From NCBI GenBank assembly GCA_038087875.1, contig CM075988.1:12774001-12838000 (forward strand): 64,000 nt of DNA. The letters run 5' to 3'. A program made the position numbers and the translations under genes. Origin of the DNA: Malacoraja senta (Eukaryota). The notes below the pieces were generated by a model. The model worked only from the letters and a program-made list of their open reading frames with translations, made no database searches and had not been told where the DNA came from. Each line of letters opens with the position of its first letter. Position 1 is the stretch's first letter. Of this stretch, positions 29,001-43,518 are shown in pieces.

Positions 29001-31352
29001 GAGACCCTTCTTCAGAGTAGTATTGGGGAGACTATTGGAGAGTAAAGAGAGGATCATGATGAGGGGAATATCAAGGAAGACAGCAATGGGTCAGATAATA
29101 CATGATGAATTTGGCAGGAGAATAGGAGTGGGGGCAAATAAAGTTCTGAGGAGCTACGGAGAACATGGACTTGGAGTGGATACCAATCACGGCAATTAGG
29201 GATAATTATTCCCGATACGAAGCCTAAACAAGAAATTTCCCTGAAGAAAGTCGAAGCATGGTCATAGAATCTTTACTGCTTGGCTCCAAAGCAGCTGCAG
29301 TGACAGCTCATTTAGTTCATGCAGGAACAGACCTTATCTCTGTTGCAACTTTCGAGGTCCATTCTGTTTGTACATCACCTATATGTGGTAAAAGAAAAAT
29401 TGTGCATGCGTCACCATGTGTGGATTGCTGCATGCTGCTTGGTGTGATTACACATCTTCAGAGACCTTTCCGAACATGTATGTCACAGACATGGAGGACA
29501 CCACTAAACAGACGTGTTTGTGTTTTGTGATCTGTCTGTATGTTCTCCCTGTGATCTGCGTGGGTATTATCCGGGTGCTTCTGTTTCATCTCACACTCCA
29601 AACACGTGCTGGTTTGCATGTAATTTTGGCTTTGGTAAAACTGTAACATGTCCCTAGTACGTGTGTGTGCGGGTAGGATAGTGTTAGTGTGCGGGGTTCG
29701 TGAACTTGGTGGGCCGAAGGGCCTGTTTCCGCCCTGTATCTCTAAACTAAACTAAAGCACCTGATGATGTTTATCAATCCAGTCTAATGAAATTATGTTA
29801 CTTTGCTCCACACTATAAAAATGCCTGACCCTTGTATTTATTTAATGACCAGTAAAATTAATGGATCAACATTGAATTCAGCTACTGGCCTGAAGGTGGC
29901 ACTGGGTCACCTGTTTATTCCAGGTTACCGCATTTTCTATTGATTACAAGTGGGAAATTGTGGGTTAATTTATTTTAGTTTATCTTCCCTTGTGTTCTTT
30001 TTTGGTTTCAAGTGGGGAAAGTGGGCATTTCCTTCTCCAAATATATAAATTCCAACTTCTACATTTTAATATTGAGCCTTAAATGAAGAATTGGACGAAA
30101 TTCTACTTCCAACACTGACCCTGCCCACCTTTCCCCCTTCCACCCCATTTTAAAATGAGAGGGTCAGATCTGATGTCACATTAAAGCCCAGTCAAGTGAG
30201 TTCATGTTAAGTAAAATCAGTCTGTCTGGTGGTGATGTTTGGCCATTAGCCTTTTTTCCCCAAAAAATGGCTAACGTATTGGGTGCCACTACCATAAGGA
30301 ACACTTTCACATGGCCAGGCTTTGTCCTGCTCCCAACTCTTTTCAAATTTCCTCCACCCCAATCCAATAAGTCTGAGGAAGGGTCCTGACCCGAAACATC
30401 TCCTGTTCATTCCTTCCACAGATAAATTTAGTTATACAGCAGGGAAATAGGCCCTTCAGCCCAACTTGCCCAGGACGATCAAAATGCTCCATCTATTGTT
30501 GTCCCACCTTCCTGCATTTGTCCTATATCCCTCTAAATCGTTCCGATCCAGATACCCGTCCACATGTCTTTTAAATGTTGTAATGCTACAGAATGTTGCC
30601 TGACCTGCTGAATCACTCGAGCACTTTGTGTTTTGCTCAAGATTCCAGCATCTGCAGTGTCTTGTGTCTCACGTGGCTACTTGTTGTAACGTTGAGTTTG
30701 CACTATGCTCGCAACTTTAGTTGGGGGTGGACCACTGAATAAATTGTTGTGAATTCTTGATGTTCCAAACCCAAATGGGTGATATAAGGTAACCCAGTTA
30801 CCAGATTACTTCAGATGAACCCACATAACACTGCAGTGGCCAATCCTTAGTTTCCCACTGGCACGTGGCATCTTTTATCTCGGGAAACATGTCACCTATT
30901 GGTGTTAATTTGTTAGAGTTTGTTTTTGATGGAGTAATCATTCACCTGGGCACAACTAACTAGAGCCATCTTTCATATTGTGATGGAACAGATTCAGATA
31001 AATTATGCTCATATTTGTGCTGTCACAAGTGATCTGTTGAGGTCAGCAGATCATTCTTGTTCAAGTCCAATTACAGTGTTAATGTGATCAGTCATGGCCC
31101 AAGCAGAATGGAGCAAACTCAATGACCGTTACAATGAAGGGCAACTAACTTGGCAACAAAATAAGTACCAGGAAACAAAATGGACACTTTACACTTACTA
31201 AATTAAACCTAATTAAAATTTCTAGCACAATAAATATATCATTCAGTTATGAATTTTAAGATTGGAAAGAGAGTTTAAGCTGGGGTTGTTTTACTTGGAT
31301 CCAGGCATATTGAGGGGAGTTTATTTGAAAAAAAACCCATACTTACTGAATA

Positions 31353-31705
31353 GTGAAAGGCCTGGATAGAGTGGATATGGTGAGGATGTTTCCACTAGTG
31401 GGAGAGTCTAGGGCCAGAAGTCATAGCCTCAGAATTAAAAGACGTTCCTTTAGGAAGATGAATAGGAATTTCTTTAGTCAGAGGGTGGTGAATCTGTGGA
31501 ATTCTTTGCAAGGCTGTGGAAGCCAAGTCAATGGATATTTTAAGCCAGAGACAGATTCTTGATTAGTACGGGTGTCAGGGGTTATGGGGAGAAGAAGGCA
31601 GGAGAATGGGGTTAGGAGGGAGAGATAGATCAGCCATGATTGAAGAGTGGAGTAGACTTGATGGGGCCGAATGGCCTAATTCTGCTCCTATTCCTTATGA
31701 CCTTA
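31353..31705 (+). mobile_element. CR1 LINE 3' fragment
   Basis: KGLDRVDMVRMFPLVGESRARSHSLRIK...FFSQRVVNLWNSL. Confidence 0.85.
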
Positions 31706-32476
31706 ATTTTAGCAGCCTTGTAGTTGACAGAATAACATTGTAATTAAATTGCACATAGTGGAACGATGAACTTTTTAAATTTATATTACAAATGTAAAGA
31801 CATTTGAAACTGTAATCATGGTCACACATATGTTTTGTGAACTTTATTCAGATGTTCAATAAACTGTGCCTGCCCACAATTCAGAGATGATTTTTGTTCA
31901 TCTTTGATGGTATACTTCATTGATATGAACATTGACTGCAACAAACGGTCTCCAATTTCTGCAGCAAACACTGCTACAAAATCATCTTGTTTACCTGTAG
32001 GAGGTCAATTACTTGTAAGGATCATTAATCCAGAAACTGTTCTTTTGCGCAGAATAACACAGAAAAATCAGTTGATTAAAATCAAGTTCTTACACTCGGG
32101 GGAATGTTTGTTTCACCACACGAATAAGTGATTCCACTCTAACTTTAATTAAATGTTGAGGGTGTTTAATTTAGAATTCCTAGACACAGTTGCAACACTT
32201 TCACAGCGAATACAGGCAATTAATGTGTTATGATATTAACTAGCAATTTCCTGTACATGCACAGTCATAACTTGCAAGTATTAATTGGAATATGGTGAGA
32301 AGACCTGGTCATTTTTGCTTCAGTCTTGCAGGTTACTAAGTGAATTCAGCCCATGATGAGATTGTTTATTACAATGCTGCTTTCTTTAAAGTCATACTCA
32401 AACTTTCAGTAGAATTTAGGAAGCTCAACATTGTTGACCTCTGTCGTGATGATAAATAGGGCATATGGGATGCTTG

Positions 32477-32561
32477 CTTTCATAGGTCGGGGCATTGAGT
32501 ATAAGAGTCAGGAAGTCGTGATGCAGCTTTATAGGATTTCAGTTAGGCCGCATATGGAGTA
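32477..32561 (+). repeat. 85-bp duplicated host target (left copy; right copy at 41730-41814)
   Basis: ctttcataggtcggggcattgagtataagagtcaggaagtcgtgatgcagctttatagga.ttcagttaggc.gcat.tggagta occurs on both sides of the ERV; 3 mismatches in 85 bp. Confidence 0.92.
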
Positions 32562-32795
32562 CTTGCTTTGAGTCCGTCTTGGTTTCTGTTTTCTCTCATC
32601 AGCACGCTCTGGCCAAGTCAACCTTTTATCGTATCCCACCATAATTCCGAGGTCTAGAACCCAGGGGAACCCTTTTTTTGTATTCTTTCTTGGGAAGCGC
32701 TCGAGTGGAGTGGTGGCCGTTTGACCCACTGACAAGGGAGAGAATCACTCGGGCAGTTGGGCCCGAAGTGGAGCAAAAGGAACAAAACCCCTACA
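32561..32795 (+). repeat. Truncated 5' LTR (approximately U5 only, 235 bp)
   Basis: Aligns without gaps to 41495-41729 with 10 mismatches in 235 bp by my count; ends ...CCCCTACA just before the PBS. Confidence 0.9.
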
Positions 32796-32797
32796 GA

Positions 32798-34665
32798 ATG
32801 GTGACCACGGCAGGACCTCGGTGGTTTGGGATATGTGACTTGCCAGAGGGGGTGAGAGAATGAAGCAAGATGGAGGAGAGAATCTCCTCTTATCTGTTTA
32901 AAAAGATCAATCTCACCAAACAATGGGTGATAGCACTTTTGACAGCACAGCCGCCCGCAGCAGCTGCAGCAGAATGGACGGAAAGTAAAGGTTATAATAA
33001 AGGTCAGGAAAAGGCAGTTTGGCTAGCGTGCCTATCACAGCAAGTAGCCAAAATGGAGAGACAGGTAGAGAGTCTAGAAGAGCAACTAAAAAAAGCTAGG
33101 GCCAGCGCTGAGGAAAGCGCTAGAGAAGGGGAAGGGCTAAGTGAGGAACTCAGTGAAGCCAGGCAGTGTATCTTGCAGGCTAGGGAGTCCCACAGAAATG
33201 CCCAGGAATTCCTCCAATGTCAGGCGGTAGAGGCAAAGGAGAGGGAACGGAATGCCCAGGAACTCCTGGCTCAGAGTACACAGAGGTACAGGGAGCTGGA
33301 GGGAAAGTTCCAAGATATCCAAGCAGCATACAGGGTGGCCCGTAGCGAGCTAGGGGATTGTGATCACGGGCCTTGCCAGGCAAGGATAGCACAGCTGGAG
33401 GAGACTCTGTCCAAGACTAGGGGACGGGTTCACCTGGTAGGACCAGGGGGGTCCCCCAGGGGCAGAGGGCTTCCCTCAGCACGTGATTCCCCAGGGGCAA
33501 AGGGGAATAGACCACCTCCTGAGGCGCCGGGAATAGGTCCGGGTCGGCAGGTGGGGTTCGGGTTGTCCGGGGAGGGACAGGCCCAAGTAGGGGCGGGAGA
33601 GCACCCTCAGTTAGCGGCGTCTGCGCCATGTGTAGCATACCATGAGGTGGTGGGGTTACCGATCATGGTGGGAGAGCAGGGGGTAATGGGGCAACAGCCC
33701 CGGGTAGGGCAGATGTGCCCGGTACGGCAAAGGAAATATGATCCCCCGGTAGGGCAGGCAGATAGGGGGCCCATAGAGAGTGATATCATCATTCCCCATG
33801 GGGGATGGTGGCTCAAGTTCCCAGGTTAACCAGGGCGGGAGACCCGTCATTGCATTTTATGGAGGTGCAGCAGGCAGCCGACATAAACAATTGCGATGAG
33901 GTAGAACGGGTAAAGCTACTACTGATGACCCTGGATTTCTACCTATGCAAGGCGGTGACCTCCAGGGAAGGGGGAAGACCTGAAACATGGGTAGCGGCAC
34001 AGACGGTGATCCTGGAGGCCATGGGGTTGAATCAGGGTAGTCCTTTCGCCAGGGTGGGGGAGACGAAGCAGCAGGTAGCTGAGTCCCCGGACATGTTCGC
34101 AGACAGACTGTGGGCAGTGTATGAGGGAGCGTGTGGGACGCCTTTAGATAGGCGGAATTTAGATGAGCGATCAGCCCACTGGCTGAAGACTCTGGTAGCG
34201 AATTGCCTCCCGCGAGTTAGGGCAAAGGCCGAGCACTGGTTCGACCCAGCGGACCCAAACCTTAACGAGGCGGAGGTAATAAGGAAGCTCACCCTTGCGT
34301 ATCGCAACGGGGAGAGAAGTGAGGAGAAGCCCATTAAGGGCAAGGTGCACAATATAGTACCGGCACCCCCCAAAAGGAGGGAGTGGAAACAGGAAGGCAG
34401 CCGGACCTCTTCCGAGATGAGGCCAGTGTGCTATGGGTGTGGGAAGCCCGGGCACTACAAGAGGAAGTGCAGAAACCCAAGTAGAGCAGTGGATAGGACC
34501 CCGGTAACAGCCGACCCAGCCCCGGAGGAGGGAGCGGCCGTGCCGGGAACAATAGATGTAAAAGATCTATTGGCCTATTTGCAGTCAAAGGCGGGAGGGT
34601 CCGGACAGGTAGCCATGGCAACAGGCCAGGGCGCGCCCGTATCCGCACCCCCGGCACCTTTATGA
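32798..34665 (+). pseudogene. gag: Retroviral gag (disrupted): N-terminal coiled coil, capsid-like region, single CX2CX4HX4C zinc knuckle
   Basis: ORFs 32870-33829 and 33805-34665 are joined by a frameshift near 33800. Heptad-rich LSQQVAKMERQVESLEEQLKK...; knuckle CYGCGKPGHYKRKC; upstream in-frame ATG at 32798 separated by one TGA (32861). Confidence 0.85.
32799..32816 (+). promoter_or_regulatory. Primer binding site, probably tRNA-Arg(UCG)
   Basis: TGGTGACCACGGCAGGAC, 3 nt after the LTR-terminal CA. It matches the complement of a vertebrate tRNA-Arg(UCG) 3' end as I recall it (TGGCGACCGCGGCAGGAC), with two CpG-type transitions. Confidence 0.7.
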
Positions 34666-37600
34666 CTGCCAGCAAAACAGCCCACATTCCTATGCCCGTT
34701 AGAGTATGGCCCATGTGGGAGACCCTGGGTCAAGATGGAGGTCCAGGATGTGGTCGGGAGTTACCTGCTGGACACAGGTGCTTCCAGTACCATTGTCCAC
34801 ACGGACAATCCCCGTACATCCCCTCTATCTAGTGGGGTGCCCTATAGTCTTGTCGGTTTTACGGGAAACGAGAAGACGGGGATTTTCTCTGTTCCCTTGT
34901 CCATTCGAGTAGGAGCACTCCAGGAGCAGTGGAAGTGCGTCCTGATGAGTTGGGAGCAGGAGGGAAAGGGGATACTAGGCGCCGACTTTATAGTGGCCCA
35001 CCAGGTCCTGGTGGACCTGAGGAACCACTGTTTGTGGGGCATAGCAGGAGAAGGGGCTGAGAGAGAGAAGGAGGTAATGGTCATCGAGAGGGCACCAGAG
35101 AGAGGGGCGCTGTGTGTCGTGACGCCCAGAGAGGGGTACGATGTAGAGGCCCTAGTGAGGCAGACCCCGACAGAGTATCGAGGCCATGTTAAGCGAAATT
35201 TGGCCGCATTCGCTACTCACAAGCACGACTGTGGAAGGGTCACAGGAACAGAGGTCAGGATAGACGGGGATCCCATGTCCCGACCGCAGAAACAGTATAG
35301 TTTTCCCTGAGAAGCGGAGGCTGACTTAGAAGTCGCCCTGAGTTCACTGGTTAAGCAAGGCGTTTTGAGGCCCATAGCCACCCACGTGAACTCACCGCTC
35401 TGGCCCGTACGGAAGCCAGACAATTCATGGAGGGCCACGGTAGATTATAGGGTCCTGAATAAGAATATTCCGGCTTGCGCACCAACTGTGGCAGCCGTAG
35501 CAGACCTATTAGGGGAAATTCCGGCGTCTGCATCTGTATTTACGGTGCTAGACATCTTGAACGGTTTCTGGTCTATCCCGGTCAGGAAGGAAGACCAGTA
35601 CACATTTGCTTTCACATTCAAGGGGCAGCAGTACACGTGGAACTGTCTTCCCCAAGGTTTCCACAATAGCCCCAGCATTTTCCACCAATGTATGGCGGAA
35701 TGTTTAAAGGAATTCAGTGAGCCCCACAAGGTCGTCCAGTATGTGGATGATATTTTGCTATTCACGGACACCAGTGAGGAACATGGGCCCCTACTAAACG
35801 AACTGCTGGAGCTGCTCTGTAAGAGTGGATTAAAAGTAAATCCCAAGAAGGCACAGATAGGGTTACAAGAGGTAAACTTCTTGGGACTGACCCTTAGGGC
35901 CGGAGAAAGGGGTATCGATACAGCAAGAAGGCAGGCAGTGCAGGAACTCCCAGTCCCAACGGATGTGGGGGGGGGTAAGGTCATTTCTGGGAGTCACGGG
36001 CTACTGCCGAGACTTTATAGAGGACTATGCCGCAGCCGCAGCACCTCTGCTCCGGCTGCTACGCAAAGGGGTAGAGTGGGAGTGGGATGAGCAGTGCGAG
36101 TCGGCATTCGTCCATTTGAAGCGGGACCTGCAAAAGGCCCCAGCTATGGGAGCCATCGATACAGGGAGGAATTTTTCCTGGAGGTAGCCGCCGGCAGCGA
36201 CGGCCTGAGCGCAGTGCTCCTCCAGGAACGGCACGGCAAGTTAAGGCCAGTGGTGTATTCCTCCAGAGCCCTCACAGAGGTAGAAAGGTCCTATTCAAAC
36301 TGTGAGCGGCACCTGCTAGCCACATACTGGGCAGTGAAGAGGGTACAGGTCTTCATAAGAATGTCCCCCATAACCCTCCTGACCCACCATACCCCAACCC
36401 AGATGCTGCTGGACGGTCGGATTAAGGATGGGACCGTTAGCAGTGCGAGGATCACTCGCTGGACCCTTCTCCTTTCCCAAATGGCCTGACGGGTTGAGAG
36501 GCTATGTGAGCCCAAGCTCGCAGCCAATTTCGTGTACCCAGGGGAGCCACACCGTTGCTCGGTGGAAGGGGTATGGGAGGTGGACTTTGGGCTTAGAGCA
36601 GGGTTACATCCCACGGGTAGGGAAATATACGTGGACGGGTCCAGTTTCGTGTCCGAGGGCATACGGCTCACGGGCTGTGGGATCTGGGACCCCGAGGCGG
36701 AGATAGCCCTAGCCCTTAAACTCCCACATACGTTAAGCGCCCAGCAGGCCGAGCTGGCGGCGGTAATGTACGTGGTCACCCATCCCGAGCGTTTCCCCCC
36801 TCCATACACCATATGTTCGGACAGCATGTTCACATGCAATTCCTGCACGGAATATCTGGCCATCTGGTCCCGCCGCGGGTACACCTCATCGGACGGGAAG
36901 CCCCTGACCACTAAACCCCTATTAGAGAGGATTGTAGCAGCCGTAGGGAAGGGCGGGGATAGATATATCCATAAGGTGAAGGCCCATTCCAAAACGGAGC
37001 CACGGGGCGAGGGAAATCAGAGGGCGGATTGCTTGGCCAGAGAAGGAGCCAGGAGTGGGAAAGCATGGGACCCCTATGAGGAAGGACAGGTAGCTGCAGT
37101 CAGGGAGCGGCCTCGAGAAAAGGGGAGTGCGGGAGTGGTTTTGGCCCCGGACCTGACCACGGTCCAGGCACAAGACCCTATTTTAAAGGCTGCCTCAGCA
37201 GCCATTTGCAGGCAGGAGAAGATAGAGGGACCATATGGGGGTAAAGACATGTCAGTAAAGGAAGGCATGTTATTCAAGGGAGATAAGTGGGTAGTGCCTT
37301 CCCTGTACAGAAGGGAATTTATAAAACTAGCCCATGAGGGTCATGGGGCAGGTCAACCCGGGCCAGAGACCACATGGCAGTGAGTAGAGATGGCAGGATG
37401 GTGGCCAGGGCTCAGGGGAGACATTCGCGACTTTTGCGCAAGCTGTCTGGTTTGCGCAGCAAACATCCCAGACCCCCAGAAAAGGAAGGTTTCTATGGGA
37501 CACATCAGGAGGGTGGTGGGGCCATGGCAGTCGATTCAAATCGACTACATCGGACCCCTTCCAACCGCTCAAGGGGGTTACAAGTACTGCTTAATCCTTG

Positions 37601-38734
37601 TGGATGTGTTCTCAAAATGGGTAGAGGCCTTCCCTTGGAGAGCAGCCACCACTATGGGTACAGCAAAAATCCTGGTTAGGGAGGTGTTCACCAGGTGGGG
37701 ACTCCCACAGTTCGTGGAGTCAGATCAGGGGAGCCATTTCACGGGACAGGTCATGCAGTCCACCCTTAGAATACTGGGCATCAAGGACAAGTAGCATGTG
37801 GCCTACCACCCCCCATCCTCAGGTCCGGTAGAGCGGTTGAACCGGACAATAAAGGAAAGGATAAGGAAGGAAACAGGGGACTTTTACCCCTGGTCCTTAT
37901 GGGGATTTGGGCCAGCCAGTCCAGGAGTATGGGGTACTCTCCCCATGAGCTTATGATGGGCCGGGTCATGAGAACGCCTATGCACGTTATGGTCCCAGCC
38001 TTAACAGAGGGACAGCTCAGGGAAGTGAATCGGGACAAGTTCGCCAAGAGGCGATTTGAACAACTTAGGCAGGTTCACTGGCAGGCAGCCAGAAACATGG
38101 GGGCCCAGCACCAAAGAAACAAGCTACTGCTGGAGCCTCGCAGGCATTGCGAGTGGGCAGTGGGGGACCAGGTAATGGTCAGGAGATATGCTAGGGTAGG
38201 GTGTTCGATACAACATAGTGGACAAGGCCAGTCCCATGGTGTATGCCATTCAGCTTCCCCGTAGAGTCAAATGGTTCCACATCAACCAGTGTAAATTGTT
38301 CGACCCCACAAGGGCAGGGAAAAGTAAGAAAGGGGTATATGTCAGGGAACAGGATCAAGAACAGACCCGGGTTGATGTGGAAACCGTAGGGGAGCCAGGC
38401 GAGTCCACAGGTAGTCAGCCTGAAGTAGCCTGCTGTGTCCCAGGGTGAGGACTGGAAGCAGCGGAGAAGGAGGTTGACTCCGCAGGCAGGTACCATAGAC
38501 TGCCTAAGAGAGGCAGAACTAGCAGAAGCAGAGGAGATGGAGGTATCACCTCAGGTGTGGGAACCCCCGGTCAGACGTAGGAGTAACAGGGTCACTAAAC
38601 CCCCAGTAAGGTGGTCCCCATCCCTAATTAAACCTAGGGCTAGGGCCGGCCACAGGAGGGCAGGGAGGGAGAGTGGCCGAAACAGGGCAGTACGGAGTGC
38701 GGCTGGAGGGAGCCCGTCTCCGGAGGGAACGTAG
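34666..38734 (+). pseudogene. pol: Retroviral pol (disrupted): protease, RT, degenerate RNase H tether, RNase H, integrase with basic C-terminal tail
   Basis: PR LLDTGASSTIV...ILGADF; RT NSPLWPVRKPDNSWRATVDYRVLN, LPQGFHNSP, QYVDD; tether LSAVLLQE...YSSRAL..VERSYSNCERHLLA; RNase H IYVDGSS/SAQQAELAAV/CSDS/KVKAHS..GNQRAD; IN H..C..C, QIDYIGPLP, VDVFSKWVEAFP, SDQGSHF, VERLNRTIK; tail RRSNRVTKPPVRW. Stops at 35308, 36487, 37381 and 37792, plus several frameshifts. Confidence 0.93.
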
Positions 38735-39163
38735 GGGTATCTCGAAACCCCGTAGTGCAAAAGGAGGTGAGGGGCAGTCAGGCCCCTCGACAGGAGGAGT
38801 TCTGGCCTGCACGGGTGGGCCCACCAGAGGGGTGGCCCCAGCGTGACGGGGACCAGTTATGAGTTGGCCACCCGGAGACGGGTGGCGTTGTATATAGCAT
38901 TGGTTTGTGTGTGAGTAGATGTAGTACGTGTTTAGTAATAAGATATAGGGTTTTGTATAGATACAGGGGAGTACAGGGACGGACAGTACGGGAACGTCGG
39001 CTGCATCGAAGGGATGGGCTGTGGAAAAGTAGACCACAACAGACAAAGGCAAAACCCCGAATGCCATTATTAGGACGGTAGCCGCTACCGTCGGCCGGAT
39101 GGCCACTCTTCCATGGGTGTGATGGAGTGCAGGGAGGCGAATAGCGATGTGGAGGAAAGGAGG

Positions 39164-39183
39164 TGTTTTGCTTTGTTTTCCAG
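39164..39183 (+). promoter_or_regulatory. Putative env splice acceptor
   Basis: tgttttgctttgttttccag immediately followed by ATG (39184; MDSPAVWMMATWFW, signal-peptide-like start). Confidence 0.6.
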
Positions 39184-40420
39184 ATGGATAGCCCCGCCGT
39201 ATGGATGATGGCAACGTGGTTCTGGGGGAGGAAAATGCGGTGGTAGGATCGGGGCTGCACGAAGAGGTGGCAATGACTCTACATCTAAAAGAAATCATAG
39301 CACAATTGGAGACACATACAAAAACGATAAACGCTTTGATTAAAGAGGACCGGAATGCGTCCGATCAGGCTGTACAGAATGAGGTGTGTGGGCTGTATGG
39401 TGCGTGGTTGTTGGGGGAGGGGAGGAGCAACCTGGAAGACCTGAGGCAAGGTCGGGTCCCCTCCTGGATAAGCAACCAGCACCTAGCAGCGCTACACCCT
39501 TATAACAGCACTTTGAGTCCTTGTCAGCTTCGTGTGGCCTCCGAGGCCTACCCGGTACCAGTGGATTGTGGAAAGTCCAATCACACCATAATGGGAGTGG
39601 TCGTAAGAATCCCGGTGATGGGAACCTCGGCACGACCAGCTCCTCTGTACCGAGTGGAGAACGTGGGAGTTGTTCGTGGGGAGGTGCATATTCGCTATGG
39701 GAAGTTCCCGCCTTATGTCATAGTGAGGGAGCAAGCTGTGACAGGCATTGACCTTTTGGGTTGTCGGAGCCGGGGAGCACATGGGCGCCAAGGCTAGGCC
39801 TCAGTGTGGGTTCAGGACTGTTGGGGCACAGCCTATAAACTGTACCATGGAGGCGATGGCGGCAGACCATGTCCCTCCACAGGTGGCGTATATAGGCCGT
39901 GGGACATACTGTGTCACCACAAGTGCCCAGCGGTATCAGCACGGATCACAGCTGTGGTGCCCGATACCACACAGCAGCTTCTGTTTTAAACCCAGGGCAG
40001 AAGTCCATGTGGCACAGCAGCAAATATTACCCATCCCGGAACCTTCTTCGGTTCACCTCTCGGTATGAGAAAATGTAACGGACTTATGTAACTATGTGGC
40101 CCAATTCGGGTATGATATTCCCCCAGTGAAGGAAAAATTAAAAGAGTTGCTGGCGGCGGTCGAGTTGTCGCACAAACACTTCTTCTCCCTGGAACAAAAG
40201 ACACTGGATATCGCCAGGGAGATCGAAGAAATCAAGTCTCCAAGTTGGTGGGACCTGGAGTCCTGGATCGTAGTTCCAGCATGGGTCCGCATCGTGTCCC
40301 ATGTTCTGATCATCTGCCAGATGATAATTGTGGTGTATTTGCTATGCATTAATTGCAAATTTAAAAGGCGGAGGAGGATGGCCAAATTACAACAGCTGGT
40401 AAATCGAGCCATAGCTGTAA
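39184..40420 (+). pseudogene. env: env remnant, class I fusion (F-glycoprotein-like) protein with HR1, Cys-rich domain, HR2 and TM; N-terminal part apparently deleted
   Basis: ORF pieces 39201-39797, 39748-40068 and 40096-40542. Amphipathic helix LHLKEIIAQLETHTKTINALI; GVVVRIPVM..LYRVENVG; Cys-rich segment; HR2 LKELLAAVELSHKHFFSLEQKTLDIAREIEEI; TM IVSHVLIICQMIIVVYLLCI followed by KFKRRRR. Confidence 0.78.
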
Positions 40421-40726
40421 CGACACCTCGGCACTGTAAAATGTCTGTACTCTATTGCAATGGTTTTCGTACGTATGTTGTGTTCCCTGCATTTTCAGGG
40501 AACGGTCGTGATGGTACTGTATGGTTTGTGGGATTGATTTAAAGTAAAACGTGTATAGTGTAAGTTAATGTGCTTCAAGGGTCTAGTTTAACAATTAAGG
40601 GGTCTTTCGGGGTACATAATTTCACAATCTCGACAGGGGTGTTTACAACTCTTGAGGCTGGAGGAGTTGCCCACTAACTTTGTCAATCAATACGGTCCGT
40701 GCAAGCCTGGACGTATCGTAGGGGCA

Positions 40727-41729
40727 TGTAAGTTATTGGGGGCAAATCTTCCAAAAGATTATGGAAGAACTCGGGGATAAGGACCTGGACATTTTAAAAC
40801 AGACTTGCTGGCTGCAAAGGAAAAAAAAACAATCCACAAAGGAAGAACCAGTTTAAAACCTGTCTGTGGGCCTGGGCATTACATGGTGTGAACAGGAAAG
40901 GCCTGGACGGAGATAACGAGATTATCTTGGAAAGACAAAGGAAGGAACCGAGCCTCAGCAGACGGGGGTAAACAGCCCAGCAACAAGACAATCACCATCG
41001 TGGATGACCCATCCATCTGGAAAATGGGAGCCCATCCAGGTGATGGGATAACGATCAGGTTGAGGCATCATGCCTTCAGCAAACCCATTATCATCGGAAG
41101 CCTATTGTTCATGCCAGATCGAAACTGGGAATCATCGAAAGACCCTTTTGTCCAGAGGACCACCTGGGAGGTTTCAAGGGAGAAACTCAGGTATAAAAGG
41201 GACTGTCAAGCAAGGTTTCGCTCTCTTTTCTGCTCTGTTGGATGACTCCTGACCCTGCATCGATCTAGCTGTAAGTACCCCAGACGACCTGGTGAAGTTC
41301 CCGAAAATAGGATAGAGGTTGAGAGAAGAAGGGGAAAGGGAGTGTATTTGTAAAATTGTGTAAAGTAAGTTTTTACGACATGCCCGATAATTATCTTTCC
41401 ATAGTCTTAGTTTAAAGCATAGGTTTAGTCACGTATTATGTGGAGTTGGTGAGATTCGATTTCTCATTTGTTCAGTAAAGCGTTTACATTTTAGACTTGC
41501 TTTGAGTCCGGCTTGGTTTCTGTTTTCTCTCATCAGCACGCTCTGGCCAAGTCAACCTTTTATCATATCCCACCATAATTCTGAGGTCTAGAACCCAGGG
41601 GAACCCTTTTTCTGTATTCTCTCTTGGGAACCGCTCGAGTGGAGTGGTGGCCGTTTGACCCACCGACAAGGGAGAGAATCACTCGGGCAGTTGGGCCCGA
41701 AGTGAAGCAAAGGGAACAAAACCCGTACA
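40727..41729 (+). repeat. 3' LTR (~1 kb): TATA 41192-41198, splice donor 41271, polyA signal AGTAAA 41474-41479
   Basis: The 3' end TACA is fixed by comparison with the 5' copy. The 5' end is inferred from TGTA after a short purine run (aggggca), giving TGTA...TACA termini, so the start is less certain. Confidence 0.7.
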
Positions 41730-42470
41730 CTTTCATAGGTCGGGGCATTGAGTATAAGAGTCAGGAAGTCGTGATGCAGCTTTATAGGACTTCAGTTAGG
41801 CTGCATTTGGAGTATTGTGTGCAGTTCCGGTTGCCCCATTACAGGAAGGATGTGGAGGATTTGGAAAGGGTACAGAGGAGGTTTACCAGAATGATACCTG
41901 CATTTCAGAATATTAACCAAAGAAAGAGGTTGGATTATTTTCTCTGGTACGCCGGAGGTTATGGAAAGGCCAGATAGAAGTATATCAAATTATGAGTGCC
42001 ATAGAGAGGGTAGACAGTCAATGTATTTCTCCCAGAATGGAAAAATCAAATACTGGAGGGCATAGCATTAAGATAAGAGGGGCAAAGTTTGAAAGAGATA
42101 TGGAGGTGTTTTTTACACAGATAGTGGTGAGTGCCTGTAATATGCTACCAGTGGTGGTGGTTGAAGCAAATAGGTTAGTGGCATTTAACAAGCATTCGGA
42201 TCGGCACATGGATTTGCAGGGAATGGAGGAATATGGGTTATGTGTAGGTAAATCAGTGTTGGTCTTATCATGGTGGATATTAATTTGTGTTTATTGTGTG
42301 TTTTGTCATTTATTATTATATGTATGACTGCAGGCAACGAAATTTTGTTCAGACCGAAAGGTCTGAATGACAAATAAAGGAATCTCTAATCTCTAATCTC
42401 TAATGTTTGGCACAGGCATCAGGCATTGTGGACTGAAGGCCCGGTTCGCGAGCTGTACTGTTCTATGTTC
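41730..42470 (+). mobile_element. CR1/HER1 LINE 3' fragment (the ERV target; 5' part at ~32458-32561)
   Basis: Encodes FIGRGIEYKSQEVVMQLYRTSVRLHLEYCVQF...ERVQRRFTRMIP, homologous to the CR1 ORF2 C-terminus at 8251-9072. Confidence 0.88.
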
Positions 42471-43230
42471 AATGAAAATTGACCAGTCAAATAATCAACA
42501 GAAAGGGCCTGCTTCATTTGTGGAACATATTTAAATATGGCAAGAATGTAGGCACTGCCTTATGAATGTTAGATAGAATGAATGAAATGAGTTGCAACAA
42601 AGGAATCTCACGGTAACCTTCTGCTGCAGATGGTTTATATTGAAATGCCAAATGCAGAATTTGTTGCCTCTGTCATAGTGTAGTTCCATATTCCAACCTG
42701 AGCACAATGAATAGGTTGACTATAATCTCCCATTCTTTTCACGGATCATTGCTTGGGACAACACTAGTTATTAAATCTTTCTGCAAGGCAGACTGTGATT
42801 TATTGTGATTGTAAAATGGTATATTTTGCTTATGGACATATTGTTTGGCTTCAATGCTTTTATCTGTTCTACTCATAAAATCCTGGCATATATGGTCAAT
42901 AAATATATAATAAACGGCACATATCAGAATAATAATCAAAAGTCTAGTGGAAGCCTCATCTTTTGGACACAGCACACTATAGAATAACAGTGTTTCTATG
43001 CCTCGGTTCAATCATTACCTATCTGAGTTGCTTCAGTGGAGCCTGTGCTTATTACAGTGCATGTCTGTGCCAATTGTGCAAAATCAGCAATTTATACTCT
43101 GATGATGACCATTCAATATCTACCTAATGCAAACCATTCTTCCTAAAAGATGACTGTTGAGAATTTTACGTGTGGGAAGAAACTGCAGATACTGGTTTAA
43201 AATGAAGATTGACACAAAAAGCTGGAGTAA

Positions 43231-43518
43231 AGAGCCTGTCCCACTTGGTGATTTTTTCGGCGACTGCCGGCATCATTGACTGACATATCATGTCATCGAA
43301 AAATACGTGGCGTGATGCGGCGTGACGATGTATGACGTGGAGGTGACGCGGCGTGATGACGTATGACGCGGTGGTGAGGCGACGTGATGACGTATGACGC
43401 TGCGGTGTTTTTTCAAGTGTCGCAACCACTTTTTTGTCGCCGCTGGATTTTGAAATGTTCAAAATCTTTTGGCGACACTGAAATGACGCCGGCAAAATCG
43501 CCAAGTGGGACGGGCCCT
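43231..43518. mobile_element. PIF/Harbinger-type MITE nested in a Penelope-derived fold-back repeat
   Basis: taa|AGAGCCTGTCCCACTTGG...CCAAGTGGGACGGGCCCT; internal (tgacg) repeats. Confidence 0.75.

Follow-up and report, generated by a model that had tools for sequence, protein, structure and literature searches.

A provirus of Malacoraja senta with one canonical end, one truncated end and an 85-bp duplication of host DNA

A decayed provirus of 9.25 kb lies on the + strand at positions 32562-41729 of a 64,000-nucleotide stretch of the Malacoraja senta genome (NCBI GenBank assembly GCA_038087875.1, contig CM075988.1, forward-strand positions 12,774,001 to 12,838,000). This whole stretch is called the window, and all positions refer to it unless stated otherwise. 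The provirus has a complete long terminal repeat (LTR) at its 3' end, only the last part of one at its 5' end, and the same 85 nt of host DNA on both sides. The viral DNA was probably joined to the target by integrase at its U5 (right) end only, the defective left end being joined by host repair after 85 nt of the target had been copied. An original prediction had described the element as a germline fossil of half-site integration. The structure of the element, the norm of its family and the host repeat in which it lies all support that description. One-ended integration is, however, the part that is only deduced, and rival histories would leave the same sequence.

Structure of the two junctions

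Twenty-nine other copies from this genome served to fix the LTR boundaries. The 3' LTR of 1003 bp (40727-41729) starts with TGTAAGTT and ends with CCCGTACA, and most of the other listed copies have the same TG...CA termini. Its terminal CA (41728-41729) forms the right end of the provirus. The LTR sequence ...TACA is joined directly to host CTTTCATAGG at 41729/41730, and the LTR end point is that of the other copies. The clean terminal CA at the right end that had been described is thereby reproduced.

The boundaries of the complete 3' LTR define what is missing on the left. The 5' LTR is without its first 768 bp and is reduced to the last 234-235 bp. The remnant at 32562-32795 corresponds to LTR positions 770-1003. 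The A at 32561, LTR position 769, is common to the host repeat and the remnant and gives the left junction an overlap of 1 nt. If this A is counted as host, the loss is 769 bp. A loss of about 770 bp and the 1-nt overlap had both been proposed, and both hold. The 5' LTR tail (32561-32795) aligns without gaps to 41495-41729 with 10 mismatches in 235 positions.

The host segment at 32477-32561 is repeated at 41730-41814 as a direct repeat of 85 nt with 3 mismatches (82/85 identical), in agreement with the original prediction, whose figures for the divergence of the flanks and of the LTRs were obtained again. The right copy begins directly after the terminal CA of the LTR, and the repeat ends at the left junction. 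Such a match between the flanks is far beyond chance.

The flanks belong to one copy of a host repeat

The 85 bp lie within a 5'-truncated copy of an interspersed high-copy repeat that may be CR1-like and for which 4241 first-look candidates were obtained. Pfam searches of the frames of this copy and of three others (L032, L038, L053) gave no match. The copy starts upstream of the duplicated segment, at 32449-32476 on the + strand, with homology to 29 other copies beginning at 32449-32489. Its remainder follows the right duplicate at 41815-42475.

Comparison with these 29 copies, out of ~4200 candidates, shows how the two flanks are related. The other copies match the 85 bp at 65-78 of 85 positions, as against 82 of 85 between the flanks. 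The flanks also have two rare states in common, GTCGTG and TTCAG, each found in only 1 of the 29 other copies. The other copies are colinear across both outer boundaries of the duplication, 32476/32477 and 41814/41815, and homology to them on the right side is unbroken over 41730-42272 and returns at 42420-42475. The flanks together make one colinear 5'-truncated repeat copy with an overlap of exactly 85 bp. On the strength of the identity, the rare states and the colinearity, the two flanks are taken to be a single host copy that was duplicated and not two independent insertions.

The original prediction would have been undone by two independent insertions of the host repeat that were later brought together, either by recombination between two proviruses or by deletion. 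Both flanks do come from a repeat family with thousands of copies. An identity of 82/85, against at most 78/85 in the 29 other copies compared, together with the two common rare states and the colinear arrangement with its 85-bp overlap, leaves such a history scarcely credible.

A second possibility is that the duplication is older than the provirus. The host region would already have been duplicated, the virus would have entered the downstream copy in the normal way, and a later deletion would have removed all that followed the upstream 85 bp, up to and including LTR position 768. A model of this kind is raised for the long duplications at human endogenous retrovirus K (HERV-K) loci in the Discussion of PMC5488345. 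The host segment does belong to a high-copy repeat, and deletions that truncate LTRs occur in the family, two members of which (L095, L101) have partial 5' LTRs. This history needs three events, however, and no such duplication is found in any of the 29 other repeat copies. The left flank is single-copy in the assembly, the flank copies are as alike as the LTRs where an older duplication should be more diverged, and the right copy begins exactly at the LTR terminus, like a true target duplication. The older duplication is thus improbable.

The left flank (31730-32476) has a single match in the assembly. A haplotig or an empty allele within the assembly was considered and rejected on this ground.

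The element is an exception in its family

The length of the target duplication was determined at other members of the family in the same genome, a check proposed with the original prediction. All seven complete proviruses with both ends paired have perfect 4-bp flanking repeats. Among 11 solo LTRs, nine have perfect 4-bp repeats; that of L005 is 4 bp with a mismatch, and that of L009 reads as 5 bp. The norm is thus 4 bp across 18 other members. Four further pairs with only one end recovered in the stretches examined (L006/L062, L023/L068, L027/L072, L017/L071) were left out of this count, as was the L008/L063 provirus, for which the locus examined did not include the start of the 5' LTR. The fixed short duplication of 4-6 bp is not found at the present element, which has 85 bp.

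The truncation is equally particular. The family census covered 29-30 loci per query, and the query made from U5 and the leader gave 372 first-look candidates. None of the 29 other proviral 5' ends inspected starts at LTR position 769-770, so that this element is the only one of 30 to do so; of the 29, 25 are complete, and the remaining four either are defective in other ways or extend beyond the locus. With the 4-bp norm, this makes the element a clear exception in a family that integrates normally.

Two of the 5' ends in the family, L079 and L080 (G000 C6:36554772 and C6:36509080), lie 45.7 kb apart and have identical scores and LTR alignment coordinates. They look like a segmental duplication that includes a provirus.

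Probable one-ended integration and a possible later rearrangement

Three features expected of one-ended integration occur together in this element. First, one canonical, processed terminus is joined to host DNA, at the right end. Second, the other end is truncated, by 768 bp, and is joined with an overlap of 1 nt. Third, there is a long target duplication and it begins directly at the right LTR terminus, the presumed site of joining by integrase.

These features can be ordered into a mechanism of four steps. A linear viral DNA would lack the U3-R part of its left LTR and so would have no left terminus on which integrase could act. At the right end, integrase would attach the 3'-OH of the CA to the target's top strand before CTTTCATAGG. 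The nick would free a host 3'-OH, to be extended by 85 nt with the intact bottom strand as template, where a gap fill of 4 nt is usual. Finally, end joining with a 1-nt overlap would link the new end to the truncated viral end, and 85 bp would be left on both sides.

Precedents for such a mechanism are known from experiments. PMC5041404 states that aberrant proviruses usually have one normal end, the other often being truncated, and that the host DNA is most commonly duplicated, often far beyond the normal 5 bp. It also describes viral DNA with "one bad end", of which integrase inserts the good end and the host machinery the other. The premise of the original prediction, that large duplications have been tied experimentally to the joining of one end by integrase and repair of the other by the host, is borne out by that account.

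The divergence of the repeated segments bears on the timing. In six other proviruses of the family the two LTRs differ by 24-40 mismatches per ~1000 bp, of which 6-12 fall in the last 228-235 bp. The 10/235 of the present element falls within that range and the flanks differ by 3/85, so that a single event fits the data. The duplication would therefore be about as old as the integration, three differences giving no close date.

Similar divergence of flanks and LTRs is also what a rearrangement soon after integration would leave. The provirus would have integrated normally, with a 4-bp duplication, and while it was still heterozygous a break in its 5' LTR would have been repaired from the empty allele through 85 nt and end-joined to LTR position 769. 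In a variant, an illegitimate crossover between the empty and the occupied alleles would have the same outcome. Such a rearrangement predicts exactly the observed sequence, including the small overlap on the left. It requires two rare events in a short time window, however, where one-ended integration requires one; it gives no reason for a break at the particular place in the LTR that is described below; and no such rearrangement is seen in the 18 other family members examined. Later rearrangement is accordingly judged unlikely.

The break lies at the predicted R/U5 border

A TATAAAA box in the 3' LTR (41192-41198) is followed ~275 bp downstream by the poly(A) hexamer (41474-41479), which reads AGTAAA here; of 37 other copies, 36 have AATAAA. 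The truncation of the 5' LTR corresponds to a position 16 nt past the hexamer, and the R/U5 border predicted from the hexamer is 41495/41496. The remnant thus equals the predicted U5, and the missing part is U3 plus R. By a post hoc calculation, a random break in the 1003-bp LTR would fall in the usual cleavage zone of 10-30 nt ~2% of the time.

The position of the break suggests that the integrated molecule was an incomplete or mis-primed product of reverse transcription. A more specific version, which we regard as rather doubtful, is that the molecule was a faulty product whose plus strand, as used in the second template switch, started at the poly(A) site (the R/U5 border) and not at the polypurine tract. 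Such a U5-only end might arise if, once the first switch had taken place, the genomic RNA served as primer with its 3' end. If this were true, the molecule would have had a complete right LTR and no left U3 terminus, so that a wild-type virus would have been forced into one-ended integration. The fossil would then record the cause as well as the outcome.

Several points weigh against one-ended integration and against this account of its origin. The R/U5 border is predicted from the hexamer and is not mapped, and there is no stable hairpin at the break that could stall synthesis (z -0.66). Three differences in 85 bp have a wide confidence range, which makes the argument from age a weak one. The two U5 copies of this element differ from each other at 10 positions, and each differs from other family copies at 7-10; they have one rare state in common and five private states each. 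They are not nearest relatives, and therefore the LTRs cannot prove that both ends came from one viral DNA. The family has the look of a burst, in which the sisterhood of LTRs is uninformative. The 85 bp was only presumably single-copy before insertion, and the part played by integrase is deduced from the canonical right end only.

Public contigs and related organisms

Contigs of one run from the same species (X23) and of runs from three related organisms (X1, X3, X4) were compared with the window over 31600-42600. Among the contigs listed none spans a junction, and those of the left flank all end at 32499-32502, inside the host repeat. The empty site of a duplication has no word unique to it, so short contigs could not show one.

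These breaks are also what would be seen if the structure were an artefact of assembly, either a junction assembled twice or a chimera formed within a retroviral element of many copies. Both flanks lie in the same host repeat copy, however, which places both junctions at one locus. The repeated segments differ by 3 and by 10 substitutions and so are not exact duplicates made by the assembler, and contigs of the same-species run match 31994-32499 and 42061-42228 without difference. An artefact is thus very unlikely.

A joint of 32490 to 41805, found at near single-copy depth in X23, X1 and X3, was considered as an empty allele and rejected because it is 61 bp out of the repeat register. Its shorter side has only 21-23 letters and it occurs also in the run of the assembled species; most likely it belongs to another copy of the host repeat.

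The unique left flank differs from that of the related organisms by ~3.3-4.2% substitutions (27/808, 34/833 and 35/842), and the LTR pair of the provirus by 4.3%. As the two values are close, the related species would have split at about the time of the integration.

Related organisms A, B and C carry the retroviral family too, as matches to 32701-41508 in X1, X3 and X4 show. A has by far the greatest summed contig depth of the three, a hint that copy numbers may differ, depth not being copy number itself.

Several other repeats lie near the provirus. The tail of the host repeat copy is interrupted by a segment of ~147 bp at 42273-42419. In related organism A, one contig takes in 42049-42267 and 42420-42600, the two parts being separated by just 12 other letters, and many other copies of the repeat also skip this segment (joints of 42228/42236 to 42452). 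Within it, 42332-42373 acts as a separate high-copy element, seen as loose ends in runs X3 and X4. On the left, 31300-31710 holds a fragment resembling the 3' end of an interspersed repeat. The summed contig depth of words in 31600-31705 is >600,000 in all four runs, which places the fragment among the most abundant repeats in these genomes. On the right, 43312-43404 consists of three tandem copies of a GC-rich 31-bp unit that are 77-84% alike.

Gene content and affinity of the provirus

All features of the provirus lie on the + strand. A sequence like a primer binding site, read from the letters of the window and starting with TGG, is found at 32799-32816, 3 nt past the end of the 5' LTR remnant. 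The arrangement of LTR-CA followed by gaaTGGCGACC... is the same in all 10 other 5' LTR loci listed. At the other end, the polypurine-tract position (40707-40726), with a sequence ending in AGGGGCA, is directly 5' of the 3' LTR. The 20 nt that precede the LTR start are identical or nearly so in nine other 3' LTR loci.

The gag region (32864-34665) consists of two frames with a coiled-coil-like part and a weak zinc knuckle, the zf-CCHC match (E 0.00095) being below the Pfam cut-off. The pol region (34666-37794) is a single frame, broken by in-frame stop codons, that encodes protease, reverse transcriptase, RNase H and integrase. Pfam matches were obtained for RVT_1 (1.8e-35), RT_RNaseH (9.5e-22), RNase_H (3.9e-19) and rve (4.7e-13); the match to an aspartyl protease is below the cut-off. 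A presumed env region, fragmented and with short open frames only, is assigned to 37770-40542 by position alone and gave no significant Pfam match.

Gag and protease-pol are in one frame with a single stop between them (34663-34665). One frame with one stop is the read-through arrangement of gamma- and epsilonretroviruses and is not known as that of foamy viruses. Among solved structures, however, the reverse transcriptase matches best the protease-reverse transcriptase chains of foamy viruses, at 150 bits versus 116 bits for the gammaretroviral enzyme. The retroviral family of the provirus, as read from these domains and frames, thus combines mixed features, a gag-stop-pol frame and a reverse transcriptase near that of foamy viruses. 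The latter match and an LTR of ~1 kb are likenesses to the foamy-like endogenous retroviruses of fish, amphibians and sharks, as these are described in PMC5512871. The weak zinc-knuckle match in gag, and gag and pol in one frame with a stop between, set the provirus apart from them.

Relation to known aberrant integrations

Two known systems resemble the present element. The first is the aberrant integrations of avian sarcoma-leukosis virus (ASLV)/RCAS and HIV-1 vectors described by the Hughes laboratory. Like the present case, they have one normal end, a truncated other end and a duplication far beyond 4-6 bp, and the cause given in PMC5041404 is a viral DNA end that is a poor substrate for integrase. 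The vector cases are somatic and come from cultured cells with mutated ends, inhibitors or mutant integrase, whereas the element described here belongs to a wild family and is a copy in the germ line, fixed or at any rate present in the assembly. Its duplication of 85 bp is short beside the "hundreds or thousands of bp" reported in the same source for the vectors.

The second system is the HERV-K(HML-2) loci, which, like the present element, are in the germ line and have direct repeats of tens to hundreds of bp, several of them at proviruses truncated at one end. Long flanking duplications are given, in PMC4422153 and PMC5488345, for 7p21.2 (250 bp), 6q21.1 (61 bp), 6p25.2 (111 bp) and 21q21.1 (450 bp). 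Of these, 6p25.2 is a truncated provirus and 21q21.1 a 3'-truncated one. PMC4422153 ascribes the long duplications to inefficient integration and refers to the same vector experiments. According to PMC5488345, the pre-integration sequence was obtained for 7p21.2 and 6p25.2, and a site can come to look empty again when long repeats recombine with each other. HERV-K is betaretrovirus-like. The present element differs from it in a reverse transcriptase nearest to that of foamy viruses, in a host that is not that of HERV-K, and in a 5' LTR truncated at the predicted R/U5 border.

A search of the literature for further germline cases with long duplications found HERV-K and none in non-mammalian hosts. 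A search for proviruses that lost the 5' LTR before integration gave nothing usable. As germline long duplications have already been published for HERV-K, the kind of event is known, and what the present element adds is an unproven twist, the U5-only end.

That the break falls at the predicted border hints at where "bad ends" may come from, though it is one case and was noticed post hoc. The element also calls for caution in the annotation of endogenous retroviruses. A pipeline that demands two complete LTRs and a duplication of 4-6 bp would wrongly call such copies fragments or recombinants. An error known from work with vectors would here be seen cleanly in nature, in a host that is not a mammal and in a virus other than HERV-K. 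The element speaks for one-ended integration with subsequent host repair as something that wild viruses undergo in the germ line and that leaves stable, datable scars there.

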